Source: Candidatus Blackallbacteria bacterium (GTDB lineage: Bacteria; Cyanobacteriota; Sericytochromatia; UBA7694). From it: a DNA stretch of 64,000 nucleotides. A program made the translations under genes and the position numbers. Under the pieces are notes generated by a model, which had not been told where the DNA came from, did not search any database, and was given only the letters and a program-made list of their open reading frames with translations. Every line of letters starts with the position of its first letter. The stretch's first letter is position 1. The DNA lies in the NCBI GenBank assembly GCA_051715345.1, contig JBPXJQ010000049.1:20015-84014 (forward strand), given 5' to 3'. Shown one piece after another: positions 1 through 21,518 of this stretch.

Positions 1-219
1 ATCGAGCATTTCCAGCGGCGTCACACAGACTGGGCAGCCAGGCCCGTGTAACAATTCAACCCCTGGGGGCAGCAGTTGATCGAGTCCATATTTGACGATC
101 GCATGGGTCTGCCCACCACAGACCTCCATCAAGGTCCAGGGGCGGGTCACCGTTTTGGCGATCTGTTCAGCCAAGGCCTGAACCCCAGCCGGATCGCGGT
201 ATTCGTCCAAATATTTCAT
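1..219 (-). CDS. hypD: Hydrogenase maturation factor HypD, N-terminal part only (runs off the left edge of the window)
   Basis: Minus-strand translation from the ATG at 217-219 gives [68 protein letters not shown]. This contains the HypD signature motifs ([16 protein letters not shown]). The start overlaps the hypC stop in an ATGA arrangement. Confidence 0.85.
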
Positions 220-464
220 GGCTTGAGTTCTTTTTCTATCTGCATCAGGGTCTCCAGATCCGCCAAGACCTTTTCCGCTGCTTCGGGGTCTAAAAGCGAG
301 AGCGCAAAACCCACATGCACGAGCACATAGTCTCCTACTTGGGCTTCGGGCACATAGGCCAAACTGATCTCTTTGATGATTCCGCCAAAACTCACTTTGG
401 CCGGGAGCAGCAGGTCGTGGGGGTCGACGATTGCGATAATTTCACCGGGCAGGGCTAAACACAT
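216..464 (-). CDS. hypC: Hydrogenase maturation factor HypC (HupF/HypC family)
   Basis: The internal start gives [13 protein letters not shown]..., the canonical HypC N-terminus with Cys2. Length is about 83 aa. The table ORF 216..551 is over-extended upstream into hypF. Confidence 0.85.
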
Positions 465-5256: not shown

Positions 5257-5526
5257 TTAATCGTCGTCTTCAACTTCAATCCTGGTTAAGACAATCGATT
5301 GTGCATCGGGGGCGTTTTGATCCCCGTCTTCTTCGATGTTTAATTCTGCGCCTTCGCAGCAGGTCCCCCTGACAGCATGTTCAAAGTGTTCGCGAAAATG
5401 GGAGCCTGAAATATGGGCCATGGCCCCAATTTTGACCGAGACAGAGACCACGCGGCTGGCATTTTCGCGTTGCGCTGTGTCTTCGATTTTTTTGAGCAAA
5501 TTGGCCAAAAGCGAAAATTCATGCAT
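5257..5526 (-). CDS. hypA: HypA-like hydrogenase nickel-insertion protein, atypical (zinc-site CxxC pairs absent)
   Basis: The MHEFSL N-terminus is the Ni-binding MHE motif of HypA. Length is 89 aa with an acidic C-terminus (EVEDDD). The only cysteines are one adjacent CC pair, so the canonical CxxC-X12-CxxC zinc finger is absent. Confidence 0.7.
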   Translation of the reverse strand: MHEFSLLANLLKKIEDTAQRENASRVVSVSVKIGAMAHISGSHFREHFEHAVRGTCCEGAELNIEEDGDQNAPDAQSIVLTRIEVEDDD

Positions 5527-6013
5527 GGGATATTTCTCCTGTTTGATGTGTTTGAAAATAGGCGGGGTAGCGGTTGTGGATTCGCAACATTAATTCTGGC
5601 AGGGCAGCAGTGACAATCGGGGAAAGCCCCGTGCCTGAGCCAAAGTCGGCCCCTTCGATGCCAAACAGTGTCAGGGCTTGGGGCAATTCGCCCAAGGCCT
5701 TTGCCATTTCAATCGCTTCGGCCACACTGAAGGCATGGGTGGAATAGTGAAAAAAACGTGAGGGAATGACCTGTTCTGAGGCCTCCAGCTCAAAGACCGT
5801 GCCAGGCAGCGCGCCAGAACAGACCGCATCGACCAGCACAACCTGCTCATACCCTTGCCAAGCCGCCATCAAGGAACTGCCTTCACCGCTTTGAACCTGC
5901 AGCTCGACTCCCTGCAAGTCTGACCTTTGAAGCTGTTTGAGTAGAGCTGGGCCGAGGCCATCGTCTTTGCGAAAGCCATTGCCAATGCCGAGGATCAAAA
6001 GCGGTTTTAACAT
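5519..6013 (-). CDS. Hydrogenase maturation endopeptidase (HoxW/HyaD/HycI family)
   Basis: 164 aa with ILGIGNGFRKDDGLG, the GxGN...DDG signature of [NiFe]-hydrogenase large-subunit C-terminal proteases. Confidence 0.85.
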   Translation of the reverse strand: MLKPLLILGIGNGFRKDDGLGPALLKQLQRSDLQGVELQVQSGEGSSLMAAWQGYEQVVLVDAVCSGALPGTVFELEASEQVIPSRFFHYSTHAFSVAEAIEMAKALGELPQALTLFGIEGADFGSGTGLSPIVTAALPELMLRIHNRYPAYFQTHQTGEISHA

Positions 6014-7434
6014 GTTTTGAACTCCCGGATCAGGGTTTGCAGGGATTCTCGGGCGTCGCCAAAGAGCATGCGGCTGTTGTTTAAAAAGAAGAGGGGATTG
6101 TCGATGCCAGCAAACCCTTGGCCCATCGAGCGTTTGAGAATGATCACATTGTGCGCTTTTTCGGCATCCAAGATCGGCATGCCGTAAATCGGGCTGTGGG
6201 GATCGCTGTGGGCCGCCGGATTGACGATATCGTTGGCCCCAATCACCAAACAGACATCGACACGGGGCAGCCGGGAATTGGCCTCTTCCAATTCGAGCAA
6301 TTGTTCATAAGGGACATTGGCCTCTGCCAACAGCACATTCATATGGCCTGGCATGCGTCCCGCAACGGGATGAATCGCGTAAAAGACCTCTGTGCCGCGT
6401 TTGTTTAAGAGTTCAGCCAATTCAAACACAGCGTGTTGGGCCTGGGCCACAGCCATGCCATAACCGGGAATAAACATCACGGTTGCAGCGCTCTCCAGCA
6501 GGTAAAAGGCCTCTTCCCCTGTCAGGGGATGGGCGTGCAGGGCAGGTCCTTTGGCTCCCGCTGCGGCAGCACTGGCGCCAAACTGGCCAAAGAGCACCTG
6601 GGCCAAGCTGCGATTCATGGATTTACACATGATCTGGGTCAGGATCAGACCACTGGCCCCCACCAAACAGCCCGTGACAATTAAGACCTTGTTGAGCAAA
6701 ACAAAACCCACGGCACAGGCTGCCAGTCCAGACAGGGCATTGAGCAGGGAGATCACCACGGGCATGTCGCCTCCGCCAATCGGTAAAACGGCCAAAACCC
6801 CCAAGAGCAGGGCCAAGCCCCCTGCGATCAACAAAATCGAGAGGGGGGGCGAGGGCAAAGCCAAGTAGAGCAATCCCAAGCCCAAGCTCAGACAAAAAAG
6901 CAGGAGATTGATCAGGCCCTGGCCTTGAAAGCGCAGGGGTTTGCCGCTGAGTTTTTCCGAGAGTTTGGCCCAGGCGATCAGGCTGCCGCTGAAGGTGATG
7001 CCGCCAATCAAAACCGAGAGATAACCCGCTCCACTGGATAAGATGCTGAGCGCGGGGCGAATCAAGGTCTCTGCCAGGGCCACCAAGACAGAGGCCAAGC
7101 CCCCCAAACCATTAAACAGGGCCACCATTTCGGGCATCCCCGTCATCGGCACCCGCAGGGCCAAAATCACCCCCAGGGCGGTGCCAATCAAAAGCCCCAA
7201 TAAGATCCACTGAAAATGCAGGCCCGTGCTCAACAGCGTGGCCAAAATGGCCAGCAACATTCCCCCCGCAGAGAGCAAATTGCCTTGGCGGGCAGAGGTT
7301 TGTTTGCCCAGCAATTTAATCCCCAAGACAAAGGCCACCGCAGAAAAAACATATAAAAATTCGCGGGCCAAATTCAGATTCAGATTCAGATTCTGGGCAT
7401 TCAAAAAAGCTAAATTCATGCCAAGCACATTCAT
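6007..7434 (-). CDS. pntB: NAD(P) transhydrogenase subunit beta
   Basis: 475 aa. It has a multi-pass membrane N-terminal half and a C-terminal NADP(H)-binding dIII domain (GYGMAVAQAQHAV, HMNVLLAEANVPY). The start overlaps the pntAB stop. Confidence 0.9.
   Translation of the reverse strand: MNVLGMNLAFLNAQNLNLNLNLAREFLYVFSAVAFVLGIKLLGKQTSARQGNLLSAGGMLLAILATLLSTGLHFQWILLGLLIGTALGVILALRVPMTGMPEMVALFNGLGGLASVLVALAETLIRPALSILSSGAGYLSVLIGGITFSGSLIAWAKLSEKLSGKPLRFQGQGLINLLLFCLSLGLGLLYLALPSPPLSILLIAGGLALLLGVLAVLPIGGGDMPVVISLLNALSGLAACAVGFVLLNKVLIVTGCLVGASGLILTQIMCKSMNRSLAQVLFGQFGASAAAAGAKGPALHAHPLTGEEAFYLLESAATVMFIPGYGMAVAQAQHAVFELAELLNKRGTEVFYAIHPVAGRMPGHMNVLLAEANVPYEQLLELEEANSRLPRVDVCLVIGANDIVNPAAHSDPHSPIYGMPILDAEKAHNVIILKRSMGQGFAGIDNPLFFLNNSRMLFGDARESLQTLIREFKTC
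7373..7394. repeat. Hexanucleotide tandem repeat (TTCAGA)x3.5 inside the pntB 5' coding region, encoding NLNLNLNL
   Basis: The plus strand reads aattcagattcagattcagattctgg. The repeat is in-frame, and the protein shows AQNLNLNLNLARE. Confidence 0.85.
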
Positions 7435-7721
7435 GGTGGTGGTCCCGCAGAATCGTTTTTTTTCTCAAACATTTTTAACATGCGGTCGGTGACCACATAG
7501 CCCCCAACCACGTTAACCGTGGCAAAGATCACCGCAGCTGTGCCCAAGAGGGTCCCCCAGAGGGAATGCCCCGAACCGGCTGCCAAGAGCGCCCCCACCA
7601 CCGTGATCCCTGAAATGGCGTTGGAGCCCGACATCAGGGGGGTGTGTAATTGTGAAGGCACACGGGCAATGAGTTCAAAGCCCAAAAAAGCGGAGAGAAT
7701 GAGGATCAACAGCAGTTCCAT
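7431..7721 (-). CDS. pntAB: NAD(P) transhydrogenase subunit alpha part 2 (membrane dII portion)
   Basis: The internal Met start gives MELLLILILSAFLGFELIARVPSQLHTPLMSGSNAISGITVVGAL..., about 97 aa. This is typical of a split alpha subunit. Its ATG overlaps the pntAA stop at 7721; the table ORF is over-extended to 7829. Confidence 0.8.
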   Translation of the reverse strand: MELLLILILSAFLGFELIARVPSQLHTPLMSGSNAISGITVVGALLAAGSGHSLWGTLLGTAAVIFATVNVVGGYVVTDRMLKMFEKKNDSAGPPP

Positions 7722-8878
7722 CAGCCCAGCCTTCCTTGCCAATAATCTTTGAGTTTGGCCTGTTGCCATTCGCCTTGAGACGTCAGCAAAGCGGCCATGT
7801 ATATTTCGTTTTGGGCATCCAAAACCCATGTTTTTGTTTCTGCTTGCGCTTGGCTATCCGCCAATTCTTTGAGCAAAAAAGACAGATTGGCGGAATACAT
7901 CCGACTGGCATCGTGGGGCACCCGGCCAGCCAAATTGCGGTAGCCGATCAATTTCACGCCTTTGCGTTCGATCAGCTGATCGGCAACGATCCCTTCCACA
8001 TTGCCGCCACTGTCCACGGCCCCATCGACCACAACCGAACCCGGTTTGAGCAGATCCAGCAGTTCTTCTGTGAGGATCAGCGGCGCGCGTTTGCCAAAGA
8101 CCTGCGCGCTGGTGATCACCACATCGCTGTGGGAGACAGCCTCTGCCAAACCTGAGGCCTGTCTTTTGAGTTGTTCTGTACTGACTTCTGTGACATACCC
8201 TTCTGAATTGGTCTCGGTGGGCGAGAGGGCAATTTGAATGGCCCGCGCCCCCAGGGACATAATTTGCTCTGAGGCTTCCGGGCGCAGATCATAGCCCTCG
8301 ACCCGCGCCCCCAGTCGCCGGGCTGTGGCGATGGCCTGCAGGCCCGCAACTCCTGCGCCAATCACCAAGACCCGCGCTGGTTGCAGGGTTCCGGCTGGGG
8401 TGCTCATCATCGGAAAGACCCTGGGCAAATATTCTGCTGCCAACAAAACCGCCACATAGCCAGCCAGACTGGCTTGAGAGGTTAGGGCATCCATGGCTTG
8501 GGCCCGGCTGATGCGGGGAATCCACTCCATGCTCAGGGCCCTGATTTTTTTGTCGAGGCAGACCTGCAAAAGGGCCTGATTCTGAAATGGATTCAGATAG
8601 CTAATATGCAGGGCCTGGGGGGAGACCCAAGCCATTTCTTCGGGTGGGGGTGGATTGAGGCGCAAAATAAGATCCGATTCTGCCAAGATCTGCCGCCGGT
8701 CATTTAACACAGTGGCGCCCATCTCCAGATAGTCTGTGTCGGGAATCTTCAGGCTTGTTGCCAGATCCGCTTCGATCTGCACCGCTAAGCCCAGGGCCCT
8801 GAGTTTTTTGACCTCAGCGGGCAAAAGCGGCACACGGGCCTCTTCGCTCTGACTTTCGCGGGGGACCCCGACGATCAT
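7721..8878 (-). CDS. pntAA: NAD(P) transhydrogenase subunit alpha part 1 (dI, alanine-dehydrogenase-like NAD(H)-binding)
   Basis: 385 aa with a Rossmann VLVIGAGVAGLQAIATARRLGARV. The MIVGVPRES start is typical of PntA. Its ATG (8876-8878) overlaps the hydrogenase large-subunit stop (8875-8877) as ATGA. Confidence 0.9.
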   Translation of the reverse strand: MIVGVPRESQSEEARVPLLPAEVKKLRALGLAVQIEADLATSLKIPDTDYLEMGATVLNDRRQILAESDLILRLNPPPPEEMAWVSPQALHISYLNPFQNQALLQVCLDKKIRALSMEWIPRISRAQAMDALTSQASLAGYVAVLLAAEYLPRVFPMMSTPAGTLQPARVLVIGAGVAGLQAIATARRLGARVEGYDLRPEASEQIMSLGARAIQIALSPTETNSEGYVTEVSTEQLKRQASGLAEAVSHSDVVITSAQVFGKRAPLILTEELLDLLKPGSVVVDGAVDSGGNVEGIVADQLIERKGVKLIGYRNLAGRVPHDASRMYSANLSFLLKELADSQAQAETKTWVLDAQNEIYMAALLTSQGEWQQAKLKDYWQGRLG

Positions 8879-10173
8879 GAGCGCGCCACCTCCAGTTTGA
8901 GGAAATGGGTCGAGCAGGAGATACAGGGGTCGTAATTGCGAATGGCCTGTTCGCAGAGATGTTGCAATTCGGGGTCGGCTTTGTCTAAATAGGTGTGCAA
9001 TAAATGCCGCAAATCTGCTTCGATGGTCTTTTGGTTCTGTGAGGTCGGCGGCACAATTTTGGCGTTAAGAATCAGCCCGTTGGCATCGATCTCGTAGCGG
9101 TGATAACAGATTCCCCTGGGGGCTTCGGTACAGCCATGGCCTTTTCCCGCTTTGACGGGCCAAGACACAAACGCCGCTTCGGGCTTTTGGTAAAGTTCAA
9201 TCAGGCGCAGGGCTTCTTCAAGTGCGTAGAGGGTTTCCAGGCTGCGCACCAAAATGCTTTTAAACGGGTTGTGGCAATGTTCAGCAATCCCCACTTCTTC
9301 TGCCAGGGCTTTGACATTGGGGCTGAGTTGCTCAAAATTGAGGTTGTACCGTGCCATGGGCCCGACAAAATAGGCCCCGTGGCCGGTGTGAATAGAATGC
9401 AATGCAGTTGAGCGGGCCACGTGTTCTTCTTCAAAATGCGCTTCGTATTCAGCAATGGGAATATCCAGGCCCAAATTGGAGACCAAGCGGCCTTCGTGAA
9501 TGGCGTATTCGCTCGGGTGTTTGAGGGCCACGTATTCATATTCCCGCTCAAAGGCTGGGAATTCAAATCCTGCCACCCAGCGCAGGGTGTCTATTGCGGC
9601 TTCTCGCGCCCATTCCAGTTCGGGTTTCAGCGCAAGCAATTCTGTTTTTTCGGGCAGGCGGTAAAAGCCCCCCACCTGTAAATTGATCGGGTGGATTTCC
9701 CGGCCGCCCAAAAGGGTCATCAGGGTATTGCCGATTTTTTTTAAGCGCAAACCGCGTTTGACAGCTTCTGGCGCGACTTTGGCCAGGGCCACTGCGTCTG
9801 GAAAACCGAGAAAATCTGGGGCATGTAACATGTAAATATGCAAAACATGGCTTTCGATCCACTCGCCGCAGTAGATCAGCCTGCGCAAACTGCGCAAAGG
9901 TTCGGGGACTTCAAGTCCGAGAATCGCTTCCATGGCCTGCACGGCCCCCATTTGGTAGGCAATTGGGCAAATGCCGCAGATCCGCGAAGTGATGTCTGGC
10001 GCTTCGCGGTAATCGCGCCCCCGCAAAAAGGCCTCAAAGAAGCGGGGCGGCTCAAAAATTTTCAGTTGGACTTCTTCCAATTCGCTGCCGTTCATTTGGA
10101 TATACAGCGCCCCTTCCCCCTCGACACGGGCCAGGTAATCGACTGAAATGATCCGGCGTTTTTTCTCACTCAT
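8875..10173 (-). CDS. Group 3b [NiFe]-hydrogenase large (alpha) subunit
   Basis: It has the N-terminal RICGICP Ni-binding motif and the C-terminal DPCISCSTH motif followed by a cleavable tail. The start is placed at the Met ([10 protein letters not shown]) 2 bp after the small-subunit stop; the table ORF extends to 10248. Confidence 0.9.
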
Positions 10174-10930
10174 GCTGCAGGCTCTCCTCTCGAAAGGCGG
10201 GGGCATTGCTATTAAAGCCCCGGTATAATCGGACCAATTCGGCTTCACTGACCCCCAATGATTTAAACGCTTGGCTCAATGCCGCCGGATGGGGGGAATC
10301 CGAGGGGCCAAAACAGCCGTAGCAGCCCCGTTGGAATGCCGGGCAAATCGCGCCACAGCCCGCGTGGGTCACTGGGCCCAAACAGGGGATTCCCTGTGAG
10401 ACCATCACACAGACCGTGCCCCTGAGTTTACATTCATGACAGACACTTTCGCTGGGCAAATGGGGCTTGCGCCGGTTTAACAGGGCGTTGATCAGCTCCA
10501 GCAATTGGTTTTTATTGATCGGGCAGCCCCGCAATTCAAAATCGACTTTGATATGCTCGGAGATCGCCGTGGATTGGCTGAGGGTTTGAATGTATTCGGG
10601 CCGGGCGTAGACCATGCGCATAAAATCTTCGACAGCCTGAAAATTGCGCAGGGCCTGAATCCCCCCAGCGGTGGCACAGGCCCCAATGCTGATCACCAAA
10701 GCCGATTGGGCCCGAATGGCTTGGATCCGCTCCAAATCGTGGGGGGTGGTGATTGAGCCCTCGACCAGAGAAATGTCATAGGGGCCCGCCACCACCGCCC
10801 GGCTGGCCTCTGGAAAATGGGCAATTTCAAGGGCATCTGCCACCATCAGCAATTCGTCTTCACAGTCCAATAAACTGAGCTGGCAGCCATCACAGGAGGC
10901 AAATTTCCAAACAGCCAATTTGGGTTTCAT
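10166..10930 (-). CDS. Group 3b [NiFe]-hydrogenase small (delta) subunit
   Basis: 254 aa with the [16 protein letters not shown] Fe-S motif of group 3 small subunits and additional Cys clusters C-terminally. Confidence 0.88.
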
Positions 10931-11770
10931 TTAGACCTCCCGGGTATTCAAAAGGGATTGGACCTTGTCATAGCGAAAGACGGGGCCGTCTTTGCAAATA
11001 AAGTGGGGACCGAATTGGCAGTGGCCACACAGCCCCACGGCACATTGCATATTGCGCTCCAAAGAGACATAGATCTGTTCGGGCTTGAGGCCCTTTTCCA
11101 AGAAGGTGTGAGCACTGTAGCGCATCATGATTTCGGGGCCACAGATCATCGCCAAGGTCTGATCGGGATCCAGGTTTTGCGCTTGGATCAGCGAAGTTAC
11201 CACCCCTACCCTGCCCTGCCAACTCTGTGTGGCTTGATCGAGGGTGATATGCACGGCGATCTCTGCGCCTGTTTGCCAGGACAGCAGTTCGTCGGCATAG
11301 AGGATTTCGGCATGTTGTCGGGCACCATAGAGCAAGGTCAGCGAACGGATTTCTGAGCGCATCGCCAGGGCCGCATAAATGGCAGGTCGAACAGGAGCCA
11401 AACCCAACCCTCCGGCCACAATCACCAGATCTTTGCCTTTGGCTTTGTGTAAGGGCCAGACGGAGCCAAAGGGCCCGCGCAGCCCCAGTGATTGCCCTGG
11501 TTTGAGTTCTGCCAAGGCGTTGGTTACAGCCCCCACTTTGCGAATGGTGTGGATTTGCGCCGAGGTGTTTTCGGGCGAGCCCGAGATTGAAATGGGCACT
11601 TCTCCCACCCCAAAGACATAGAGCATATTAAACTGCCCTGGCCGAAACGGGGGGATCGTCTGGACACGCGTTTGTACTTCGGGCTTTTCACAGCTCAGGC
11701 TAAAGGTCTGGGGGGTTTCCCAGCGAAAATCGCTGATACGCCAGACCTCTGGCAAAAGCGCTTGGCTCAT
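10931..11770 (-). CDS. Sulfhydrogenase gamma-like subunit (FAD/NAD(P)-binding, [2Fe-2S]; PyrK/AsrB-like)
   Basis: 279 aa with a ferredoxin-NADP-reductase-like fold and a C-terminal [15 protein letters not shown] cluster. Its ATG overlaps the upstream gene's stop as ATGA. Confidence 0.85.
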
Positions 11771-12228
11771 GTTTGACCTCCATACAGATCCAATAATTGC
11801 AAGCGCGTGGCCTGCAGTCGTTCTACCATCATTTGCCCAAAGCGCTTCTGAATCAGATACCCCATTTCATGGTCAGTTTCACATTGCTCCAAAAAGGCTT
11901 TGGCATCAAAGACCAGAATTTGGCTGTCTTCAAGCGCCTGGGCATCAAAATGCCATTTATACGGGGGATAGAGCCAAGACCAGCCCAGCAGATCCCCTTC
12001 ATGCAGGGTTTGGATCCGCACGCAGCCCCGCTGCGAGGAGAACATTTCAATCGCCACCGTACCCGATTGAATCAGGTAAAACGCTTCCGCTTTGCCGCCC
12101 AATTTAAACACAAAGTCGTTGGCCGCAAAGCTCCGCAGGTGTGCGCAGCGAATCAGGGCCTGCAGGTAGGGGGTGGGCAAATCTTTAAAATGGCGTTGTT
12201 TGCGGATCGCGTCCTCTTTAATTTCCAT
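11767..12228 (-). CDS. Cyclic-nucleotide-binding-domain-only protein (Crp/Fnr effector-domain-like, no HTH)
   Basis: 153 aa with a beta-roll [22 protein letters not shown]...[12 protein letters not shown]. The phosphate-binding cassette is degenerate, with no RTA/RSA. The gene is embedded between the beta and gamma hydrogenase genes, with an ATGA overlap downstream and a 5-bp gap upstream. Confidence 0.7.
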
Positions 12229-13360
12229 GGGGGATCTCCTCTGCTTTTGTTTGTAATGCGTTCAATGCTTCAATTTCTGAGGTGAGATCGATTCCCACCG
12301 GGCACCAGGTAATACAGCGGCCACAGCCGACACAGCCTGATTGGTCAAATTGCTCCTGCCAAAAGGCCAGTTTGTGGCTGATCCACTGTCGGTAGCGTGC
12401 GCCTGGGCTTTGGCGAATCGGCCGACCCGCGGTAAGTGTAAAATTCAATGAAAAACAGGAGTCCCACTCACGCCAGCGCTCACTGCTTGTGCCTGCCAAG
12501 TCGGTCACTTCTTGAACCCCTGAACAAAAACAGGTGGGGCAAACCAGTGTGCAATTGCTGCAACTCAGGCAGCGCTCCCCCACGTCTTTCCAATGGGGGC
12601 TTTCATACCCGCTTTTTAAGGCCGCGCTGGCCTGCTGGGGATTCAAACTCCGGCCCATCTGCGCTGCCGCCGCTGCCCACAACTCACTTTCTTTTTCAAG
12701 CAGTGTTTCTGGGGCCTGGCTCGGGCTGCATTGCTGGAGCAGGGCTGCCCCTTTGGCGCTGCCAGCTCGGGCCAGATAACAGGGGTCTGCGGTATCAAGT
12801 ATTTCAGTGATGGCCAGATCGTAACCGGGCCCGGCTGCTGGGCCTGCCTCCATCGACACACAAAAACAGGTATTGCCGGGCTCGGTGCAGTTCACGGCCA
12901 AGATAAAGATCTGCTCCCGTCTTTCCCGGTAAAAATCATCGCTGTAAGGGCCTTCGAGAAAGACCCTGTCTTGGATTTGGATCGCTTTCAGTTCACAGCC
13001 CCGCACGCCAATCATGGCGTATTTGGGCACAACCTGATCGGGGGCTGTGATCTGCAAACCACGGCTGTTTTGTTCCGCTTTCATCAACAATTGCCGAGGC
13101 GGGTAGAGGTATTTTTTCCAAGCCTGGGGGCCCACAACATAGCCAAACAAGGCTGCATCGTCTCGGGAACGCAAGCGGTAAGTGCCTTTTTCTTGAATGT
13201 CGCCGATACCCATCGGCAGATCTGCTGTACTCTGAATGGCGTCGTAGACAATGGCCTGATCCCTGACCACGGGACCCACGGTCTGGTACCCAGCGGCCTG
13301 CAATTGGCTGAGCAGTTGATCCAGTTGTTTGCGCTGGAGAAGTACGACTTCTGTTTGCAT
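12218..13360 (-). CDS. Sulfhydrogenase beta-like subunit ([4Fe-4S]; AsrA-like)
   Basis: It contains [16 protein letters not shown] and [15 protein letters not shown] ferredoxin motifs. The start is placed at MQTEVVLLQ, preceded by a GGGGGA RBS; the table ORF extends to 13411. Confidence 0.85.
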
Positions 13361-13533
13361 CTTCGCTGATTCCCCCGTTTCTCGGCTCCTTTGAGGAAAC
13401 ACGATCCTCATCTACAGCATGGCTGATTATCCCTTTATTATCTTTGATAGATCTCCAGTATGAAATTGATCTTGATCAGGAAAAAATCAAATAATCCAGA
13501 TAAAATAGTGATAAAGCGTTAAACTTAAAATAC

Positions 13534-14586
13534 ATGAAACCCCAGACACGAAATTATGCCGGTGTACACAGCAATAATGCGCAATTTGCGGGATTTTCTT
13601 GGGCATTTACCCGAAATATTCGCGCAGAGCTTGTTATTTTTACTGGGCTGACGGGATATCTTGAAACCCTGACAGATCCGTCTTATCAGGGGCAAATTGT
13701 GGTGTTTACCTCTCCCCAAGTGGGCAATTATCTGCCTGATTTGACCCGGATGCAATCCCCCCGGATTCAAGTGGCGGGTGTGGTGGCCAGGGCCTATAGC
13801 CCGCCCCCAGAGAGCCCAAACCAAATCACTTTGGCCCAGCTTTTGCTCACTGCAAAGATCCCCGCCCTGATGGGGGTCGACACCCGCAGTTTGACTTTGG
13901 CGCTGCGCCAAGACTCCCAAACAAGACGCGAAGTTGAGCTGATAACGGTGCCGGGAGCGCCGATTGAAAATCCCGCCTTGCCCCATCCCGCTCAGGTCGC
14001 AATTCAGGCCCCGTATTTGCACAGAGGTGGCGAAAAAACGGTGGTGCTGGTGGATTGTGGCGTCAAAAACCGGCTTTTAGACCTGCTGCTGCAGGCGGGT
14101 TTAAGTGTGTGGCAGGTTCCCTGGGACTTTGATTGGCGGGATTTGCCCCATCAGGGCCTGTTGCTATCTAATGGCCCAGGCAATCCCGCTGAGTGTGAAA
14201 CCACAATTTCGATTTTAAAATCCGGGCTCAATCCGCAGATCCCTGTTTTGGGCATTTGTCTCGGGGCACAATTGCTCGCCCATGCGGTGGGTGCAAGCAC
14301 CGCCCCCCTGCCATTTGGTCACCGGGGGGCCAATCATCCCTGCCGCGATCGTTTGAGTGGGGCCTGTTATATCACCGCGATGAATCATGGCTATGCCATT
14401 GTTTCGGAGAGTTTGCCCCCGGAATGGCAGGTCTGGTTTGAACATCTCCACGATGGCAGTTGTGCAGGATTAAAACACCGTGTTTTTCCTTGGCGGGGGG
14501 TGCAATTTCATCCGGAGGGCTGCCCAGGCCCCACAGACACGGCATTTATCCTTGCGGATTTTCTGAGCGAGGTTCTCGATGCCTGA
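13534..14586 (+). CDS. carA: Carbamoyl-phosphate synthase small (glutaminase) subunit
   Basis: 350 aa with N-terminal GYLETLTDPSYQGQIVVFTSPQVGNY, the GICLGAQLL catalytic Cys region and the C-terminal FHPEGCPGP. Confidence 0.85.
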   Translation: MKPQTRNYAGVHSNNAQFAGFSWAFTRNIRAELVIFTGLTGYLETLTDPSYQGQIVVFTSPQVGNYLPDLTRMQSPRIQVAGVVARAYSPPPESPNQITLAQLLLTAKIPALMGVDTRSLTLALRQDSQTRREVELITVPGAPIENPALPHPAQVAIQAPYLHRGGEKTVVLVDCGVKNRLLDLLLQAGLSVWQVPWDFDWRDLPHQGLLLSNGPGNPAECETTISILKSGLNPQIPVLGICLGAQLLAHAVGASTAPLPFGHRGANHPCRDRLSGACYITAMNHGYAIVSESLPPEWQVWFEHLHDGSCAGLKHRVFPWRGVQFHPEGCPGPTDTAFILADFLSEVLDA

Positions 14587-17275
14587 ATCCGTTTTGGTGC
14601 TGGGATCGGGTCCGATTCAAATTGGCCAAGCAGGGGAGTTTGACTATGCCGGGGCCCAGGCCCTCAAAGCGCTCAAAGAAAGGGGGTTCCGCACCCTTTT
14701 GTTAAATTCGAATCTGGCCAGTGCCCAGACGCTGGGGGTTTTTGCCGATCGCGTGTTTGCCCTGCCACTCACACCCGCCTCGGTACAAGCTATTTTGGCA
14801 AGTGAAACCCCGATCGGGGTTTTGGCGGGATTTGGCGGCCAATCGGCCCTCAATTTGGCCTTGGAACTCGATCAAGCGGGGCTGTTAAAGCGCTTGCCCC
14901 TGCTCGGCACCGCTCTGGAGACCCTGATGATCTGTGAAGATCGCTTGAAGTTTTTCAGATTTTGTCAGAATCTGGGTTTGCCGGTCCCCAAGACCTATGT
15001 TTTGTCGGATCTCTCGGCCTTTAATTCTGAATTAAACGCAACAGACGCCTTTCCCTTGCTGCAGCGCAAAAGTTTTGCCTTGGGGGGCCAAGGCGCGGTC
15101 TTTTATCCCAACTTGGCGGCATTGTGGGCAGATCCCGGCCTCAAAGATCGTTTGAACCCAGCGGCACTTTTAAACGCGCCACTTTTGCTCGAAGAAGATC
15201 TCAGGGGCTGGCAAGAAATCGAGTTTGAAGTTTTGGCGGATGCTGCGGGCAATCAATTGGTGGTCTGTGCCACTGAAAACATAGACCCAATGGGCATTCA
15301 CACGGGGGACAGCTATGTGGTCACGCCGCCGATGACTTTGAGTGACGCCAGCTATTTTGGGCTGCGGGCGGCTGCCCTGAAATTGGTCTCCGCCCTGAAA
15401 TTGGTCGGGGAATGCAATGTGCAATTTGCTTACCATCCCAAAAGTGACGCCTTTCGCCTGATCGAATTGAACCCCCGTTTGAGCCGCAGTTCTGCGTTGG
15501 CCTCCAAAGCCACGGGTTATCCGATTGCCTATGTGGCCGCCCAATTGGCCTTGGGTGGGCTTTTGCCTGACATTGTCAATCCACTAACGGGGGTCACCTC
15601 CTGTTTTTTTGAACCGGCGCTGGACTATGTTGTGGTCAAAGCCCCCCGTTGGCAATTTGACAAATTTCCAGGGGCCGATCGGCATTTGGGGCCCGAGATG
15701 AAATCCATCGGTGAAAACATGGGGATCGGAGAAGATTTTGCTTCTGCTTTTGCCAAAGCATGGGCCCTGACCCAAACTCAGAAACTGCCTCATGGGGCAA
15801 ATGGGTCAAATTGGTCAATGACTGCCTTGCGGCAAGAATTGGCCTGTCCCACAGATCTGCGCATGTCGGCCCTCTTTGCGGCGCTGGAACAGGGCCTGCC
15901 TTTGGCCGAAATAGAGGCCTTAACAGGGTTTTCTGGCTGGTTTTTGCAGGCCTTTCGAGATTTGGCACCCAGGCTCAAAACGGGCCATCTCGGTTTCTGG
16001 GGCTTTCGCCAAATCGACACCCTGGCAGGGGAATTTCAGGCCCAGACGGCCTATCTCTATCGCGGCCAAGCCCTTGAATTCACCTTCGGGCCAGGTCCCT
16101 GGGTCTTGATTCTGGGCAGTGGGCCCTATGGGATTGGTTGCTCCGTCGAATTTGACTATTGCTGCGTCAGCGCGATTTATGCCCTGCAAGCAGCGGGTTA
16201 TAAAGTAGCCATGATGAATTCAAACCCCGAAACCCTGAGCACAGATTGTGATTTGGCGGATGCCCTGATCTTTGAACCTCTGTTGCCTGAAAGCCTCAAT
16301 GCAGTGATGGCGGCGCTTCGACCTGTGGGTGTCTTGGCTTCGCTGGGCGGGCAAACACCCCAGAATTTATTGCAGGTCTTGCCCCGGCACTGGCCCTTTT
16401 GGGGCACGCCAGTGGGCCAAATTTTAAAAGCTGAAAATCGCCTGGCATTTGCCCTGGCCCTGGATCAATTGCAGATCCCCCAGGCCCCTTGGGCCAAAGT
16501 GACATCCTTGGCTGACGCTTTGGCGTTTGGTCAAAAGGTCGGTTATCCGCTGATCTACCGCCCTGGTTTTGTCTTGGGGGGGGGCGGTATGCAGGTGATT
16601 GAAAACGCCCAAGCCTTAGAAAAATGGGGAGACCATCTTCAGCTCAACGGCCCTTTACCGCGCACAGAAGGGGCCTTGCTGAACCGCTTTTTGGCGGAGG
16701 CCAAAGAGTTTGAACTCGATGGCATCGCCCGTTTGGGGCAATTGGAGTATTACCTCTTTTCAGAAAATCTTGAACCCTCAGGCATTCATTCCGGGGATTC
16801 TCACCATGTCTTCCCGGCCCAAAGCCTGTCCCCTGAGGTGCGCGCCCAGGCTTTGACTTATGCCTTAAAATTGGCACAATCGTTTGAACTCCACGGTTTG
16901 TTTAATCTCCAGTTTTTTTACCATCAAGGCGCGGTTTTGCTGATCGAAGCCAATCTGCGCGCTTCCCGCAATCTGCCTTTTTTGAGCCATGTTTCGGGCC
17001 AGAACCTGGTCAGTTTGGCGATTGAGCGCCTGCTTGCGAGCGCCCCCTTGGCAGAAGCCCCTGTCGAAATCAGTGCAGATCAGGTCGGGATCCGGGTGCC
17101 AACGTTTTCTTGGGAGCGCATGGTCGGGGCCAAACGGGAATTGGGGGTGGAAATGAAGGCCACTGGCGAGTTTTGTCTGCTGGCGGACAGCTTTGATAAC
17201 GTGCTTCAGCTGTGTTATAATTTGCCAGATTTTTGTGCCTTCACACCGTCTTGGCGCCTCTCCAAAGGAGAATGA
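14579..17275 (+). CDS. carB: Carbamoyl-phosphate synthase large subunit, short form lacking the C-terminal allosteric (MGS-like) domain
   Basis: 898 aa. It has two ATP-grasp halves (GSGPIQIGQAGEFDYAG; LILGSGPYGIGCSVEFDY). The protein ends directly after the second-half PxFSWERMVGAKRELGVEMKATGEF segment. Canonical CarB is about 1070 aa. Confidence 0.88.
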   Translation: MPESVLVLGSGPIQIGQAGEFDYAGAQALKALKERGFRTLLLNSNLASAQTLGVFADRVFALPLTPASVQAILASETPIGVLAGFGGQSALNLALELDQAGLLKRLPLLGTALETLMICEDRLKFFRFCQNLGLPVPKTYVLSDLSAFNSELNATDAFPLLQRKSFALGGQGAVFYPNLAALWADPGLKDRLNPAALLNAPLLLEEDLRGWQEIEFEVLADAAGNQLVVCATENIDPMGIHTGDSYVVTPPMTLSDASYFGLRAAALKLVSALKLVGECNVQFAYHPKSDAFRLIELNPRLSRSSALASKATGYPIAYVAAQLALGGLLPDIVNPLTGVTSCFFEPALDYVVVKAPRWQFDKFPGADRHLGPEMKSIGENMGIGEDFASAFAKAWALTQTQKLPHGANGSNWSMTALRQELACPTDLRMSALFAALEQGLPLAEIEALTGFSGWFLQAFRDLAPRLKTGHLGFWGFRQIDTLAGEFQAQTAYLYRGQALEFTFGPGPWVLILGSGPYGIGCSVEFDYCCVSAIYALQAAGYKVAMMNSNPETLSTDCDLADALIFEPLLPESLNAVMAALRPVGVLASLGGQTPQNLLQVLPRHWPFWGTPVGQILKAENRLAFALALDQLQIPQAPWAKVTSLADALAFGQKVGYPLIYRPGFVLGGGGMQVIENAQALEKWGDHLQLNGPLPRTEGALLNRFLAEAKEFELDGIARLGQLEYYLFSENLEPSGIHSGDSHHVFPAQSLSPEVRAQALTYALKLAQSFELHGLFNLQFFYHQGAVLLIEANLRASRNLPFLSHVSGQNLVSLAIERLLASAPLAEAPVEISADQVGIRVPTFSWERMVGAKRELGVEMKATGEFCLLADSFDNVLQLCYNLPDFCAFTPSWRLSKGE

Positions 17276-19422
17276 GTTCAAACGTGGATTTTGAGCCCCC
17301 CCACAGCGATGATTGGATTGAATTGACCCAGTTGGAAGACCTCCTGCCGCCTGCCAGCGTGGCGGACCCCGCGTCCCCACTTTTGCCGCCGGCCCCTGAG
17401 CGCTATACCTTTATGGGCACCGTTGGCAAAGGCGCCATGGGTGAGGTTTTGCTGGCCCAAGATGTGCATCTGCGTCGCAAGGTGGCGTACAAAAAAATTC
17501 TGCCGCAGATGGCTGTCAGTCAGCAGGTGTTGAGTCGCTTTTTTGCCGAGGCGCAAATCACGGCTCAACTCGATCACCCGGCCATTATTCCGGTTTACAA
17601 CCTGGAAGTCAGTCCCGAAGGCCAAATCGCCTATTCGATGAAGCTGATTCAAGGCAAAACCCTCAAAGAGCTGATCAGCGAAGCCCGCGAGCAATACCAA
17701 GCCGGTCAAACCCCCGATCCCCAGCACAGTCTGGATACCTTGCTCAGGCATTTCCTCAAAGTCTGCGATGCCCTGTATTTTGCCCATATCAAAGGGGTGA
17801 TTCACCGCGATCTCAAGCCCGCCAATATCATGGTGGGCATGTACCACGAGGTCTATGTGATGGACTGGGGCATCGCCCGAATTATGGGGGGGGCCGAAGC
17901 CCGGATCGATGACGAGGTGGTCAGGTTGATTCATCCCGATGCCGATGCGCCCCCGCTCGAGCGCACCCAAATGGGCCAAATCATGGGCACGCCGCGTTAT
18001 CTTTCACCGGAGCAGGCCGCCGGAAAAAACGATTTGCTCGATGGCCGCAGTGATCTCTTTGCCCTGGGCCTGATCCTGTTTGAATTGGTGACGCTCAAAC
18101 CGGCGTTTACAGCCAAGACCCAAATCGAACTCCTCAAAAAAATCCTCAAAGCCGAAAAAGAGCCGCTGGAACACAGCCAAGCGGGTGTCAAAATTGCCCC
18201 AGAATTAGAGGCGATTATTCACAAAGCCACCGCCCGGCGCAAAGAGCATCGCTACGCTGATGTGGCCGAATTGGCCGAAGATCTGCGCCGCTATTTGCGG
18301 GGCGAAGCGGTGCTTGCCAGCCCAGATCGTTTTTGGCAAAAGGCCCGCCGCTATATGAGGCAACACCGGCAAGCCACGCTGCTGGGGCTGTCTCTGCTGG
18401 TTTTTCTCTCGCTCAGCGGTGCGGCTGGGTTATTGGCCTTGCGTAGCCAGGCCATGTTGGCCGCACGGGCTCACGAACAGCGTCTGGGGGGCTTTCTCGA
18501 AACCGTGGCAGAGCGCAGCCGTTTGCTCGACCGGCAGTTTTTTCTGACCGAGATGGCCCTGGAAAGTCTGTCGGCGATTGTCACTGAGGCCCTGTTTCAG
18601 GGGGAGCGCAGCGGCCAACGTCTGTATCTGGACGCGGATTATGCCCAAGCGCCGCCCCCAGATTTTGGCTTTGCGCCCCGCTATGGCAAAGCGATTAGCA
18701 CGGCCTGGCCGGTGTTTAAATTGGCCCCTGGCAGTGATTTAAACGCCCTGCGTGGGCAAATGCAGAAGCTCAATCGCCTGCATTTGGATCTGGGCCGCCT
18801 CTTTTTACGCGGGCAATTGGGCAATTTGCCTGTGCCGCCACCCGCGCAATTGCGCCAGAAGATAGTGACCGGGGAAGGCACCCTCTTGCGTTGGGTCTTT
18901 GCGGGGCTCAAAGAGGGCCTGATGTTTGCCTATCCCGGCAAAGGGGGCTATCCCGCTGATTATGATCCCAGGCAACGCCCCTGGTACAAACAAAGTGTTC
19001 AGACCCGGGGTCTGCACTGGCAAAAACCCTATTTGGATGTGCAGGGCCAAGGCCTGATGCTGACCTGCACCCGTGCACTGTATGACTATAACGAGCGCTT
19101 TTTGGGTGTCGCAGGGGCTGAAATTGCCCTCAAAGACATTCTCAAATTATTGCCCCTGCCCGATGCCCGCGCCCGCAAGGTCTATTTGCTCAATCAGGCC
19201 ATGCAGGTGGTTGCCGAACAGAGCACAGGCCAAGCTGCCAAGACCATGGGCGCGGCAGGCCTCAGTTTGGCTTTTCCCTGGCCCGAAGCCCTGCCCGCTT
19301 TGCGTTCCCGCGACAGTGGCTTTGTCCACCAGGGCCAAACGCTGTTGGTCTTTTACCGCCTGGATATTCTCGGTTGGACCTATGTGGTCGAAGCGGATCA
19401 GGCTTTGGAGCTGCAGCCATGA
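17272..19422 (+). CDS. Transmembrane Ser/Thr protein kinase with C-terminal extracytoplasmic Cache-like sensor domain
   Basis: It has a Gly loop GKGAMG, VAYKK, a catalytic loop HRDLKPANIM and DWG. There is one TM segment (LLGLSLLVFLSLSGAAGLLAL), followed by a domain with the YDPRQRPWY Cache motif. The start overlaps the carB stop; the table ORF starts at 17233. Confidence 0.85.
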   Translation: MSSNVDFEPPHSDDWIELTQLEDLLPPASVADPASPLLPPAPERYTFMGTVGKGAMGEVLLAQDVHLRRKVAYKKILPQMAVSQQVLSRFFAEAQITAQLDHPAIIPVYNLEVSPEGQIAYSMKLIQGKTLKELISEAREQYQAGQTPDPQHSLDTLLRHFLKVCDALYFAHIKGVIHRDLKPANIMVGMYHEVYVMDWGIARIMGGAEARIDDEVVRLIHPDADAPPLERTQMGQIMGTPRYLSPEQAAGKNDLLDGRSDLFALGLILFELVTLKPAFTAKTQIELLKKILKAEKEPLEHSQAGVKIAPELEAIIHKATARRKEHRYADVAELAEDLRRYLRGEAVLASPDRFWQKARRYMRQHRQATLLGLSLLVFLSLSGAAGLLALRSQAMLAARAHEQRLGGFLETVAERSRLLDRQFFLTEMALESLSAIVTEALFQGERSGQRLYLDADYAQAPPPDFGFAPRYGKAISTAWPVFKLAPGSDLNALRGQMQKLNRLHLDLGRLFLRGQLGNLPVPPPAQLRQKIVTGEGTLLRWVFAGLKEGLMFAYPGKGGYPADYDPRQRPWYKQSVQTRGLHWQKPYLDVQGQGLMLTCTRALYDYNERFLGVAGAEIALKDILKLLPLPDARARKVYLLNQAMQVVAEQSTGQAAKTMGAAGLSLAFPWPEALPALRSRDSGFVHQGQTLLVFYRLDILGWTYVVEADQALELQP

Positions 19423-21518
19423 GCCCAGAACAGATTTCTACCCCTGACGAAATGGAAGAATTGCTGCAGACGATCACGGCTGATTATAAACTCAGCTCAG
19501 AGCAACTCAGCACCCCGGGGCGTCAGTTTTACGCCCTGATCGCACATTTGGCAGAAGGTGAAATGGGCCAGATAGATTTGGTCAAAGAGAGCGCCTTGCA
19601 GCGCAAAGTGGCGATGAAAATGGTGCGCCAGCAAGAAAAACCGGCCCGCATTCGCCGTTTTTTGTTGGAGGCGCAAATCACAGCCCAATTGGACCATCCG
19701 CATATTGTGCCCGTTTACAGCCTCGAAAACACCCAAGCCGGTCTGGCATATACCATGAAACGGGTCCAGGGCCAGACCTTCCGAGAGCTGATCGATGCCG
19801 CACAATCGCAAACCCTGCCCGTGATGCCTTTGACCCAGCGTTTGGAAGTCTTTTTGGCTGTGTGTGATGCCCTGGAATATGCCCACAGCCGGGGCGTGAT
19901 TCACCGCGAATTGGAGCCCAATAACTTGATGATCGGCCATTTTCATGAGGTCTATGTGATGGATTGGGGCTTGGCCCGTGTCTTGCCCGATTCGCCTTTA
20001 GAAGTGCGCATTCCGCCAGAATTGGATCAAGATCAAGTCGACGACAGTCCACTTGAAGGCAATCTCTGCTATTTTTCGCCCGAACAGGCCAAAGGGCAAT
20101 GGGCCGAACTGGATCAGCGCAGCGATCTCTATGTGCTCGGCCTGATACTTTACGAATGGATTTGTCTGCGCCCTGCCCGCACGGGTGATTCTTACCTGGC
20201 GCTCTTGCAAATGGCTGAACAGGGCTGGATCAACCCACCCGCTTTGCCTGGCGCACAAAAACTCCCGAGTGAGCTCACTGCGATTTTGCGCAAAGCTACG
20301 GCTTTAAAGCCTGAGCAGCGCTACGCCAGTGCCAGCGCCTTGGCTGATGACCTGCGCCGCTATTTAAAGGGGGAGAGTGTCTCTGCCCAACGGGACACCC
20401 TTTTGCAGAGCACAAGCCGGCTGTTCGTCAAGCACCAGTTATTGGCCCTTGGCACGGTCTTGACATTGGTTTTGCTCTGTTCTCTGCTCGGGCTCTGGAG
20501 TCTCTGGAGCCAGCAGCGTGAATTGGCGCGTTTGCGGGCCCGCGAACAGGCCCTCAATCGCTATTTGGGTGCCGTTTATGCGCAAAGCCGTCTGATGAAC
20601 CGCCAATTTCTCAAAGCCGAAATGCAACTCGAAGCGCTGTCCGCGGTGGCGGTCTCCCATCTGACCCAGCAAAATCCGGTCAGGGATCGCTATTATTTGC
20701 ACACAAAATTTACCCCCCCCGATCAGGTGGCCTCCAAGCAATTTCACAGCCAGCTCAGTGTCAATTGGCCCCTTTCGGTCAAAACCTGGTCTTTGCCTGA
20801 ATCCCAAGTGGCAAAAGAATTGGGTGAATTGTCCAGTTTGCGCCATTTTCAAAAACGCCTCTTGATCGAGAGCAAAACCCCCGAACGGCTCAGCGCGTTG
20901 GAGAAACAAACCCTGATAGCCCAAAGCGGCACCCCCGTGAGTTATGCCACTTTGGTGCTCAAACAAGGCGCGGGGGCCTGGCTGCCGGGGGGCGATTTTG
21001 AGAGCCACAACTACGATCCGGTGATCCGGCCCTTTTACAAATTTGGGGCCTACCAACACGCCCGGCGCTGGGGCAATCCGTATATCGACGTCAGTGGGGC
21101 TGGCTTGCTTTTGATTGCCGCCACAGGTCTCTTCGATCACCAGAACCAGTTTTTGGGCACCGCCAGTCTGGATGTTAAATTTGACACGATCATTCAGACC
21201 ATGTTGGCCCTGCCACCGGCTTTGCGCACTTTAAAAGGGGGGTATTTACTCGATGACCAGGGCCGGATTGCGATTCGCTCGAATCAAAAAGGCCAAAAGT
21301 TTTCAGCCACCATTCACCCCGATTTAAAATTGCCCGACTACCCCCACCCGGCTGTGGTGAAAGCGATCAAGGCCCAACAATCGGGCCACCAGATTTTGCC
21401 CGGCAAACAGCCGCTTTTGGTGGCCTATTACCGCATTCCCGCTTTGGGTTGGTATTATCTGGTCGAAAGCGATTTGGAAAAGGCCTTGCAAGCGGCAGAT
21501 TTGAGTAAAGAAAACTAG
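19419..21518 (+). CDS. Paralogous Cache-domain transmembrane pseudokinase (degenerate catalytic loop HRELEPNN, degenerate Gly loop)
   Basis: It has the same architecture as the upstream kinase, but HRD->HRE, K->E and a Gly loop AEGEMGQ. It retains VAMK and DWG. There is a TM segment and a Cache-like C-terminus (YDPVIRPFY). Its ATG overlaps the kinase-1 stop as ATGA. Confidence 0.8.
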   Translation: MSPEQISTPDEMEELLQTITADYKLSSEQLSTPGRQFYALIAHLAEGEMGQIDLVKESALQRKVAMKMVRQQEKPARIRRFLLEAQITAQLDHPHIVPVYSLENTQAGLAYTMKRVQGQTFRELIDAAQSQTLPVMPLTQRLEVFLAVCDALEYAHSRGVIHRELEPNNLMIGHFHEVYVMDWGLARVLPDSPLEVRIPPELDQDQVDDSPLEGNLCYFSPEQAKGQWAELDQRSDLYVLGLILYEWICLRPARTGDSYLALLQMAEQGWINPPALPGAQKLPSELTAILRKATALKPEQRYASASALADDLRRYLKGESVSAQRDTLLQSTSRLFVKHQLLALGTVLTLVLLCSLLGLWSLWSQQRELARLRAREQALNRYLGAVYAQSRLMNRQFLKAEMQLEALSAVAVSHLTQQNPVRDRYYLHTKFTPPDQVASKQFHSQLSVNWPLSVKTWSLPESQVAKELGELSSLRHFQKRLLIESKTPERLSALEKQTLIAQSGTPVSYATLVLKQGAGAWLPGGDFESHNYDPVIRPFYKFGAYQHARRWGNPYIDVSGAGLLLIAATGLFDHQNQFLGTASLDVKFDTIIQTMLALPPALRTLKGGYLLDDQGRIAIRSNQKGQKFSATIHPDLKLPDYPHPAVVKAIKAQQSGHQILPGKQPLLVAYYRIPALGWYYLVESDLEKALQAADLSKEN

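Follow-up and report, generated by a model that had tools for sequence, protein, structure and literature searches.

A predicted minimal carbamoyl-phosphate synthase encoded with the [NiFe]-hydrogenase maturation genes of Sericytochromatia

Introduction

Carbamoyl-phosphate synthases (CPS) that serve a single pathway are known from Bacillus and Lactobacillus, where one cell can have more than one CPS, an arginine-specific CarAB and a pyrimidine-specific PyrAA/PyrAB, each regulated along with its own pathway; these isoenzymes keep their C-terminal domain and function in arginine or pyrimidine synthesis. Here we describe a carA-carB pair in a 64,000-nucleotide stretch of DNA from Candidatus Blackallbacteria bacterium (contig JBPXJQ010000049.1; the whole stretch is called the window below). 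The pair resembles the Bacillus and Lactobacillus isoenzymes in that a CPS is encoded with the pathway it feeds, the pathway in this case apparently being the biosynthesis of the cyanide (CN) ligands of [NiFe]-hydrogenase.

The CPS of Escherichia coli (CarAB; PDB 1BXR and 1JDB) has the same general architecture as the pair in the window: two subunits, a Cys-His-Glu amidotransferase, tandem ATP-grasp units (one for carboxyphosphate formation, one for the phosphorylation of carbamate) with the same catalytic residues, and a carA-carB operon order in which the genes overlap. Within E. coli CarB, the oligomerisation domain spans residues 401-552 and the allosteric domain residues 933-1073; the enzyme forms dimers via the regulatory domains and tetramers via the oligomerisation domains (PMC6245113).

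The two CN ligands of every [NiFe]-hydrogenase derive from carbamoyl phosphate through the action of HypF and HypE, and carAB (pyrA) mutants are without hydrogenase activity (PMC12134894, PMC6022934, PMC13260591). Where this pathway has been described, the carbamoyl phosphate comes from general metabolism, through CarAB in E. coli and ArcE/ArcB in Thermococcus kodakarensis (PMC13260591). The supply has been regarded as incidental to pyrimidine and arginine metabolism, and only recently did a study look at it outside E. coli (PMC13260591). Of the known pathway, HypF (with its acylphosphatase domain), HypC and HypD are encoded in the window, and HypE is encoded in relatives. Neither a CPS within a hyp cluster nor the truncated family presented below is described in the literature searched (reviews of carbamoyl-phosphate metabolism from 2018 and of [NiFe]-cofactor synthesis from 2025, a 2019 study of hydrogen metabolism in cyanobacterial siblings, and the 2026 study of carbamoyl-phosphate supply in Thermococcus, PMC13260591), which is absence of evidence only. 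The concept of a pathway-specific CPS is already known; the hyp-linked truncated family appears to be new, as no prior description was found.

Results and Discussion

The carA-like gene, for the glutamine amidotransferase subunit, occupies positions 13534..14586 of the plus strand (350 aa) and the carB-like gene, for the synthetase subunit, positions 14579..17275 of the same strand (898 aa), with an overlap of 8 nt (ATGCCTGA). Coordinates and lengths from the open reading frame (ORF) calls were exactly those given in an earlier, sequence-only reading of this DNA. CarA, identified in addition by alignment to E. coli CarA (1BXR_B), consists of the CPSase_sm_chain domain (PF00988) and a class-I amidotransferase GATase domain (PF00117), and scores above the NCBIfam cutoffs (TIGR01368, 309.8 bits versus a cutoff of 307.35; NF009475, 287.4 versus 221). 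CarB, aligned to 1BXR_A, contains two CPSase_L_D1/D2 units (PF25596 and PF02786, twice each) and a partial D3, and gives no match to PF02142 in Pfam. Its score exceeds the cutoff of NF003671 (840.3 versus 599) and stays below that of TIGR01369 (878.9 versus 1027), so that surveys of carB by keyword or in the style of KEGG miss the family. The proteins are labelled 'ATP-grasp domain-containing protein' or 'hypothetical protein' by PGAP/NCBI (MBT9544074.1, MGE3724148.1 and MGE3724149.1; relatives in loci L006 and L004) and are currently mis-named in public annotation.

The alignment of CarB to 1BXR_A revealed two losses. Residues 3-475 correspond to E. coli 8-483 and residues 476-829 to E. coli 526-879, and the protein ends ~17 residues past the equivalent of E. 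coli ~933, i.e. past the start of the allosteric domain. The MGS/allosteric domain (E. coli 933-1073, PF02142) is wholly absent, which bears out the proposal of the sequence-only reading that ~140 residues of allosteric domain are missing from a protein that stops at 898 aa. The second loss, absent from that reading, concerns the oligomerisation domain, of which ~42 residues (E. coli 484-525) are without counterpart in the window CarB; only profile positions 2-44 of 80 are matched by PF02787. Both deletions are common to all six full-length members of the family (867-905 aa). Because these six relatives, from independent assemblies and as low as 52-54% identical, end at the same point, the truncation is no accident of assembly. 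Since the dimer and tetramer contacts of the E. coli enzyme use the regulatory and oligomerisation domains, the truncated CPS is probably a simple alpha-beta pair that does not form tetramers.

The catalytic machinery is retained in both subunits. Thirty of the 32 active-site and nearby positions of E. coli CarB, mapped via the PDB alignment, are identical in the window protein, including R129, R169, E215, H243, N283, Q285, E299, N301, R303 and R306 in unit 1 and R675, R715, E761, H788, N827, Q829, E841, N843, R845 and R848 in unit 2 (E. coli numbering). The two changes, D753N and H781N, lie outside the core catalytic set. CarA is 32 residues shorter than the E. coli subunit and keeps the triad Cys269/His353/Glu355, Gln273 and Asn311-His312 (E. 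coli numbering); equivalents of Cys269, His353 and Glu355 are present in 6/6 CarAs of the family. The alignment to 1BXR_B also agrees with the earlier remark that CarA has GICLGAQ in place of the usual GICLGHQ. This replacement of His272 by Ala is invariant in the six CarAs; His272 was reportedly found to be dispensable in E. coli by Miran, Chang and Raushel in 1991. In the comparison of the window with its 93%-identical relative (L006), the ratio of nonsynonymous to synonymous substitution rates (dN/dS) was 0.14 for carB and 0.19 for carA, within the range of the hydrogenase and pnt genes (0.09-0.22). As these values are like those of the neighbouring hydrogenase genes, they indicate that carA and carB are under purifying selection and are working genes, not remnants. 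Overall, the pair is predicted to encode a catalytically complete, glutamine-dependent CPS pared down to its catalytic core.

The genomic context was compared among the eight loci with readable flanks (the window, L001-L006 and L032). L005 is identical in sequence to the window, and L007 is too short for its neighbourhood to be judged. At all eight, carAB lies beside hyp or hydrogenase genes, in three different gene orders. In type 1 (window, L005, L006, L001/L002 and L004) carAB is divergent from a train hydB-cNMP-hydG-hydD-hydA-pntAB-hycI-hypA (cNMP standing for a gene encoding only a cyclic-nucleotide-binding domain), which in the window runs on through ppsA, hypF, hypC and hypD. Type 2 (L003, 54% identity) has hypD-hypE-carA-carB-hydB-cNMP on one strand; here the hypE stop overlaps the carA start and carA overlaps carB. 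In type 3 (L032, 52% identity), hypF-hypC-hypD-hypE-carA-carB are on one strand and ppsA-hypA-hycI-pntBA on the opposite one, and no hydrogenase structural genes are present within +/-10 kb of carAB. What stays constant beside carAB is the hyp set; two of the three orders have carAB directly downstream of hypE in particular. The link to hydrogenase maturation that had been read from the window alone is thereby upheld in eight of eight loci and three gene orders; the further claim that the enzyme is unregulated holds only insofar as the enzyme has lost the domain to which UMP, IMP and ornithine (uridine and inosine monophosphate being the first two) bind in E. coli. In a four-locus comparison of protein identity, CarA was the least conserved (64%) and CarB among the least (67%), compared with 88% for HydA and HydD and 79% for PntB.

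Directly upstream of hypF in L032 lie a gene for pyruvate:ferredoxin oxidoreductase (PFOR) and one annotated as 'dihydroorotate dehydrogenase-like'. The latter was considered as a pyrimidine gene and rejected, as it belongs to family NF005741 and is not PyrD.

The truncated family is very rare. A word-indexed search of 5.8 billion clusters gave four close relatives without PF02142, followed by an abrupt fall to full-length CarBs of ~42% identity, and an exhaustive HMMER search of 1.84 billion representatives yielded three 50%-identity clusters of the truncated type only, namely the window's own (P0003), one at 55% (P0004, 867 aa) and one at 52% (P0121, 905 aa). The best normal CarB in the HMMER search was 45% identical, and identities to normal CarBs ranged from 41 to 45%. 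Among species-representative genomes, two metagenome-assembled genomes named 'Candidatus Sericytochromatia bacterium' carry a truncated CarB, of 93% and 87% identity, and a third Sericytochromatia assembly (GCA_050248915.1, L004) has a 68%-identical copy; all family members with names are Candidatus Sericytochromatia, a group related to cyanobacteria but not photosynthetic. Two family-invariant motifs, run against JGI metagenome contigs, matched no further members. In a distance analysis the family was monophyletic with no specific canonical sister, which leaves old paralogy or transfer as its origin. Because the family is so rare, it is not the general housekeeping CPS of the class.

The normal-length CarB nearest to the family (P0122; L034 3310-6546, Logan SRR27760789) is 45% identical and shares with it the N-terminal-half motifs DYAG, ENIDPMG, NPRLSRS...GYPIA and ALDYVVVK.PRW.FDKF, which are otherwise typical of the family. 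This protein could point to the lineage that gave rise to the truncated family. P0122 was rejected as a resident normal CarB of Sericytochromatia, as its small clade is labelled only 'bacterium' and the next relatives are Firmicutes at 59%.

The intergenic region between hydB and carA (positions 13412..13533) measures 122 bp and has a GC content of 29.5%, compared with ~54% for the window, in line with the ~120-bp AT-rich divergent region noted before. With the hydB start placed at 13360, as the gene caller does for the identical contig L005, the spacer would be 173 bp. An alignment of five type-1 loci contains an invariant 22-nt block (TGAAATTGATCTTGATCAGGAA) in segment 13458-13481, at loci whose proteins are only 64-72% identical. 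Inside this block lies an FNR/CRP-like box, TTGATCTTGATCAG (TTGAT-N4-ATCAG, 13466-13479), one mismatch away from the FNR consensus, TTGAT-N4-ATCAA. The exact pattern TTGATN4ATCA occurs three times in the 64 kb, versus 0.63 expected. Promoter-like hexamers flank the box in both directions. L032 has perfect boxes of the TTGAT-N4-ATCAA type upstream of pntA and hypA (18832-18845 and 15477-15489) and none upstream of carA, which at that locus is probably transcribed as part of the hyp operon. The region upstream of carA gave no Rfam match and contains no known RNA leader of the pyrimidine or arginine type. The putative box may be the site of an oxygen- or cyclic-nucleotide-responsive regulator for the whole module, and the arrangement, like the operon-like packing of the genes in L003 and L032, is suggestive of co-regulation of carAB with the hyd and hyp genes. 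The pair differs from E. coli carAB in being encoded with hyp and hydrogenase genes and, apparently, in not being under pyrimidine/arginine control.

The neighbourhoods strongly support recruitment of the pair to hydrogenase maturation, which need not be exclusive. The reading that we favour, with somewhat better than even confidence, is that a minimal CPS has been recruited to the maturation of [NiFe]-hydrogenase as an accessory paralogue that keeps company with the Hyp genes and feeds HypF. The hydrogenase to which this Hyp set belongs would be a cytoplasmic [NiFe] enzyme of the NADP type (group-3b-like), and carAB accompanies the set in a small clade made up of Sericytochromatia and relatives. 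During hydrogenase assembly, CarAB would convert glutamine, bicarbonate and two ATP into carbamoyl phosphate; HypF, whose gene lies in the same train, would hydrolyse it, adenylate the carbamoyl group and pass it to HypE; and HypE would dehydrate the carbamoyl group to cyanide, which ends on the active-site iron. Lacking the domain for UMP, IMP and ornithine, the enzyme would supply carbamoyl phosphate independently of pyrimidine or arginine status, and control would be transcriptional instead, via the promoter region that carAB has in common with the hydrogenase operon. Enzymatic activity, the flow of product to HypF and the lack of feedback are predicted here from genes and alignments.

Several points weigh against such a role. 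Large C-terminal truncations are said to impair carbamoyl-phosphate synthesis by E. coli CarB severely (Czerwinski, Mareya and Raushel, 1995). The demand for CN ligands is tiny relative to the cost of an enzyme pair of 1,250 residues. The presence of ppsA and pntAB in the train means that being in this neighbourhood does not always indicate a role in maturation. Nor does truncation by itself imply dedication, since a 908-aa CarB without MGS domain (P0186; GCA_964524705.1, L033 8937-12727) is found in a housekeeping-like context. That protein also resembles the window CarB in a similar shortening of the oligomerisation domain and in being preceded by a 357-aa carA; unlike the family, it is a singleton, only 40% identical, nearer to CarBs of the Firmicutes/Chloroflexi type (46-48%), and has proS, murJ and proC as neighbours without hyp or hydrogenase genes. 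It was rejected as a family member, as an unrelated singleton. The protein searches returned no normal CarB from named Sericytochromatia, and the enzyme may therefore be the general CPS of these organisms. Finally, the carB-like gene of L004 is split by an in-frame TAA at 9998-10000 (LALG*LLPE) into parts of 317 and 560 aa, and is otherwise intact. An uninterrupted protein of 879 aa (P0394) belongs to the same 90%-identity cluster, and the TAA stems either from a sequencing error or from a recent mutation specific to the strain.

Of the alternatives, the one that survives best, unlikely as we judge it, holds that the pair is the organism's only general CPS, which serves pyrimidine synthesis, arginine synthesis and HypF alike, has lost its allosteric domain and lies near hydrogenase genes by chance. 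With every catalytic residue in place, the enzyme could deliver carbamoyl phosphate to any user, and the fate of its product is unrestricted. P0186 provides a precedent for a CarB without MGS domain beside carA among housekeeping genes, and the general-metabolism genes ppsA and pntAB do occur in the train. In addition, no second carA or carB came up in the window, where Pfam was run on every ORF of 150 aa or more as far as position 59,511. A pattern scan of genome contigs aimed at relatives returned two Sericytochromatia loci and 24 unrelated normal CarBs that share the pattern by chance, and eight unnamed top NCBI matches resolved to spirochaete and Acidobacteria names only. Nothing was drawn from the KEGG table in the supplement to Carnevali et al. 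2019, which has no Sericytochromatia column (BJ4A being a Melainabacterium). On the other side, it would be unusual for a housekeeping carAB to lie in an operon of the form hypFCDE-carAB or hypDE-carAB-hydB, and three rearrangements have not broken the linkage. The extreme rarity of the family and its low identity (41-45%) to every other CarB are unexpected for a vertically inherited core enzyme. In the four-locus ranking of conservation, CarA comes last and CarB is among the lowest.

Less probable still is that the enzyme is CPS-like with a product destined for a use other than HypF, be it another acceptor, an energy or nitrogen role in a fermentative module of PFOR, PpsA, PntAB and hydrogenase, or an anaerobic route to the CO ligand. 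The train does mix maturation genes with those of central metabolism, the family is divergent, and where the CO ligand comes from under anaerobic conditions has yet to be settled (PMC12134894). However, the active-site residues are those of a true CPS, and at none of the loci is a transcarbamoylase, a carbamate kinase or another consumer of carbamoyl phosphate nearby, whereas HypF or HypE is. Published labelling, moreover, traces carbamoyl phosphate to CN and not to CO (PMC12134894). It is scarcely credible that carAB is a duplicate in decay, on its way to becoming a pseudogene after losing its C-terminus: the truncated protein and the in-frame stop of one relative could be taken that way, but dN/dS values of 0.14-0.19 contradict it, the truncation point is identical among members 52-54% identical, all catalytic residues are kept, and an intact member shares the 90%-identity cluster of the interrupted gene.

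Recruitment to hydrogenase maturation also allows a bolder proposal, which we rate as doubtful: the truncated CarAB as a seventh Hyp component, an alpha-beta CPS docked on HypF that hands the labile carbamoyl phosphate directly to the acylphosphatase site. If this is true, the pathway from glutamine, bicarbonate and ATP to cyanide would be self-contained and insulated from pyrimidine/arginine feedback, and the two domain losses, complete for the allosteric and partial for the oligomerisation domain, would reflect the new partnership.

If a CPS is indeed part of hyp operons, genomes would for the first time indicate that the maturation pathway of some organisms has a precursor supply of its own. 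As a natural minimal CPS, the pair is useful for asking what the allosteric and oligomerisation domains add to catalysis, and those who engineer hydrogenase maturation in heterologous hosts could use it as a compact part. The great rarity of the family, a chemistry that is not new and an unproven exclusivity limit how much the finding weighs; it is noteworthy to specialists in hydrogenase maturation or CPS and is directly testable.

Other features of the window

The train on the minus strand has the order hydB-cNMP-hydG-hydD-hydA-pntA-pntA2-pntB-hycI-hypA-ppsA-hypF-hypC-hypD. Its hyd subunits resemble those of sulfhydrogenase-type group-3b enzymes but score under the archaeal equivalog cutoffs of NCBIfam. 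The first gene (12218..13411) encodes a hydB-like Fe-S subunit (Fer4_22, PF17179; ShyB/HydB/AsrA-like, below cutoffs). It is followed by the gene for the 153-aa protein that has only a cyclic-nucleotide-binding domain (11767..12228; PF00027), which is kept at the same place in L001, L003, L004, L005 and L006. The next genes encode a hydG-like FAD/NAD(P)-binding subunit (10931..11770; PF00175 and PF10418, NF006220/ShyC-like), a hydD-like hydrogenase small subunit (10166..10930; PF01058, ShyD/HydD-like) and a hydA-like [NiFe] large subunit (PF00374, ShyA/HydA-like). The ORF limits of the last are 8875..10248; translation probably starts near 10173, for a product of 432 aa like that of relatives. 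A complete proton-translocating NAD(P) transhydrogenase is encoded at 6007..8878 (pntA 7721-8878, pntA2 7431-7829 and pntB 6007-7434, from Pfam and ORFs), with the same gene order in L001 and L004. The combination of NADP-hydrogenase, transhydrogenase and the gene for the cyclic-nucleotide-binding domain is unusual and is kept in relatives.

Further along the same strand lie the genes for a hydrogenase maturation endopeptidase of the HycI/HyaD family (5519..6013; PF01750, TIGR00072 at 111.7 bits versus a cutoff of 47.45) and for a short HypA of 89 aa (5257..5526, from its translation), of which TIGR00100 matches only profile positions 1-67 of 116. HypA measures 86-89 aa in these clusters (also in L001, 80-349, and L032, 15127-15387); it has the nickel-binding MHE start but lacks the CxxC...CxxC zinc motifs, and hypB was not seen in the vicinity of the short hypA. 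Between hypA and hypF lies ppsA, for phosphoenolpyruvate synthase (2746..5202; NF005057 at 1116.6 bits versus a cutoff of 598). ppsA adjoins hypA in L032 as well (12675-15095, NF005057 >1100 bits), in a different arrangement. The hypF gene (455..2815) encodes a carbamoyltransferase with intact acylphosphatase domain (TIGR00143 at 745.6 bits versus a cutoff of 466.1; PF00708, zf-HYPF, YrdC and Kae1-like), and the train ends with hypC (216..464; ORF translation MCLALPGE...) and the part of hypD that encodes its N-terminus (1..219; translation MKYLDEYRD...GPGCPVCV), the gene running off the start of the window.

On the plus strand, carB is followed by genes for two Ser/Thr protein kinases with dCache sensor domains (17272..21518; Pfam). 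The start of the first overlaps the carB stop (ATGA), and it may be co-transcribed with carB; the kinase genes are present in L004 and L006 and absent from L001. Also on the plus strand, positions 30420-33038 encode a protein of 872 aa that combines five Big_5 Ig-like repeats with an ice-binding-like domain (PF11999) at its C-terminus; this hints at a cold habitat of the organism.

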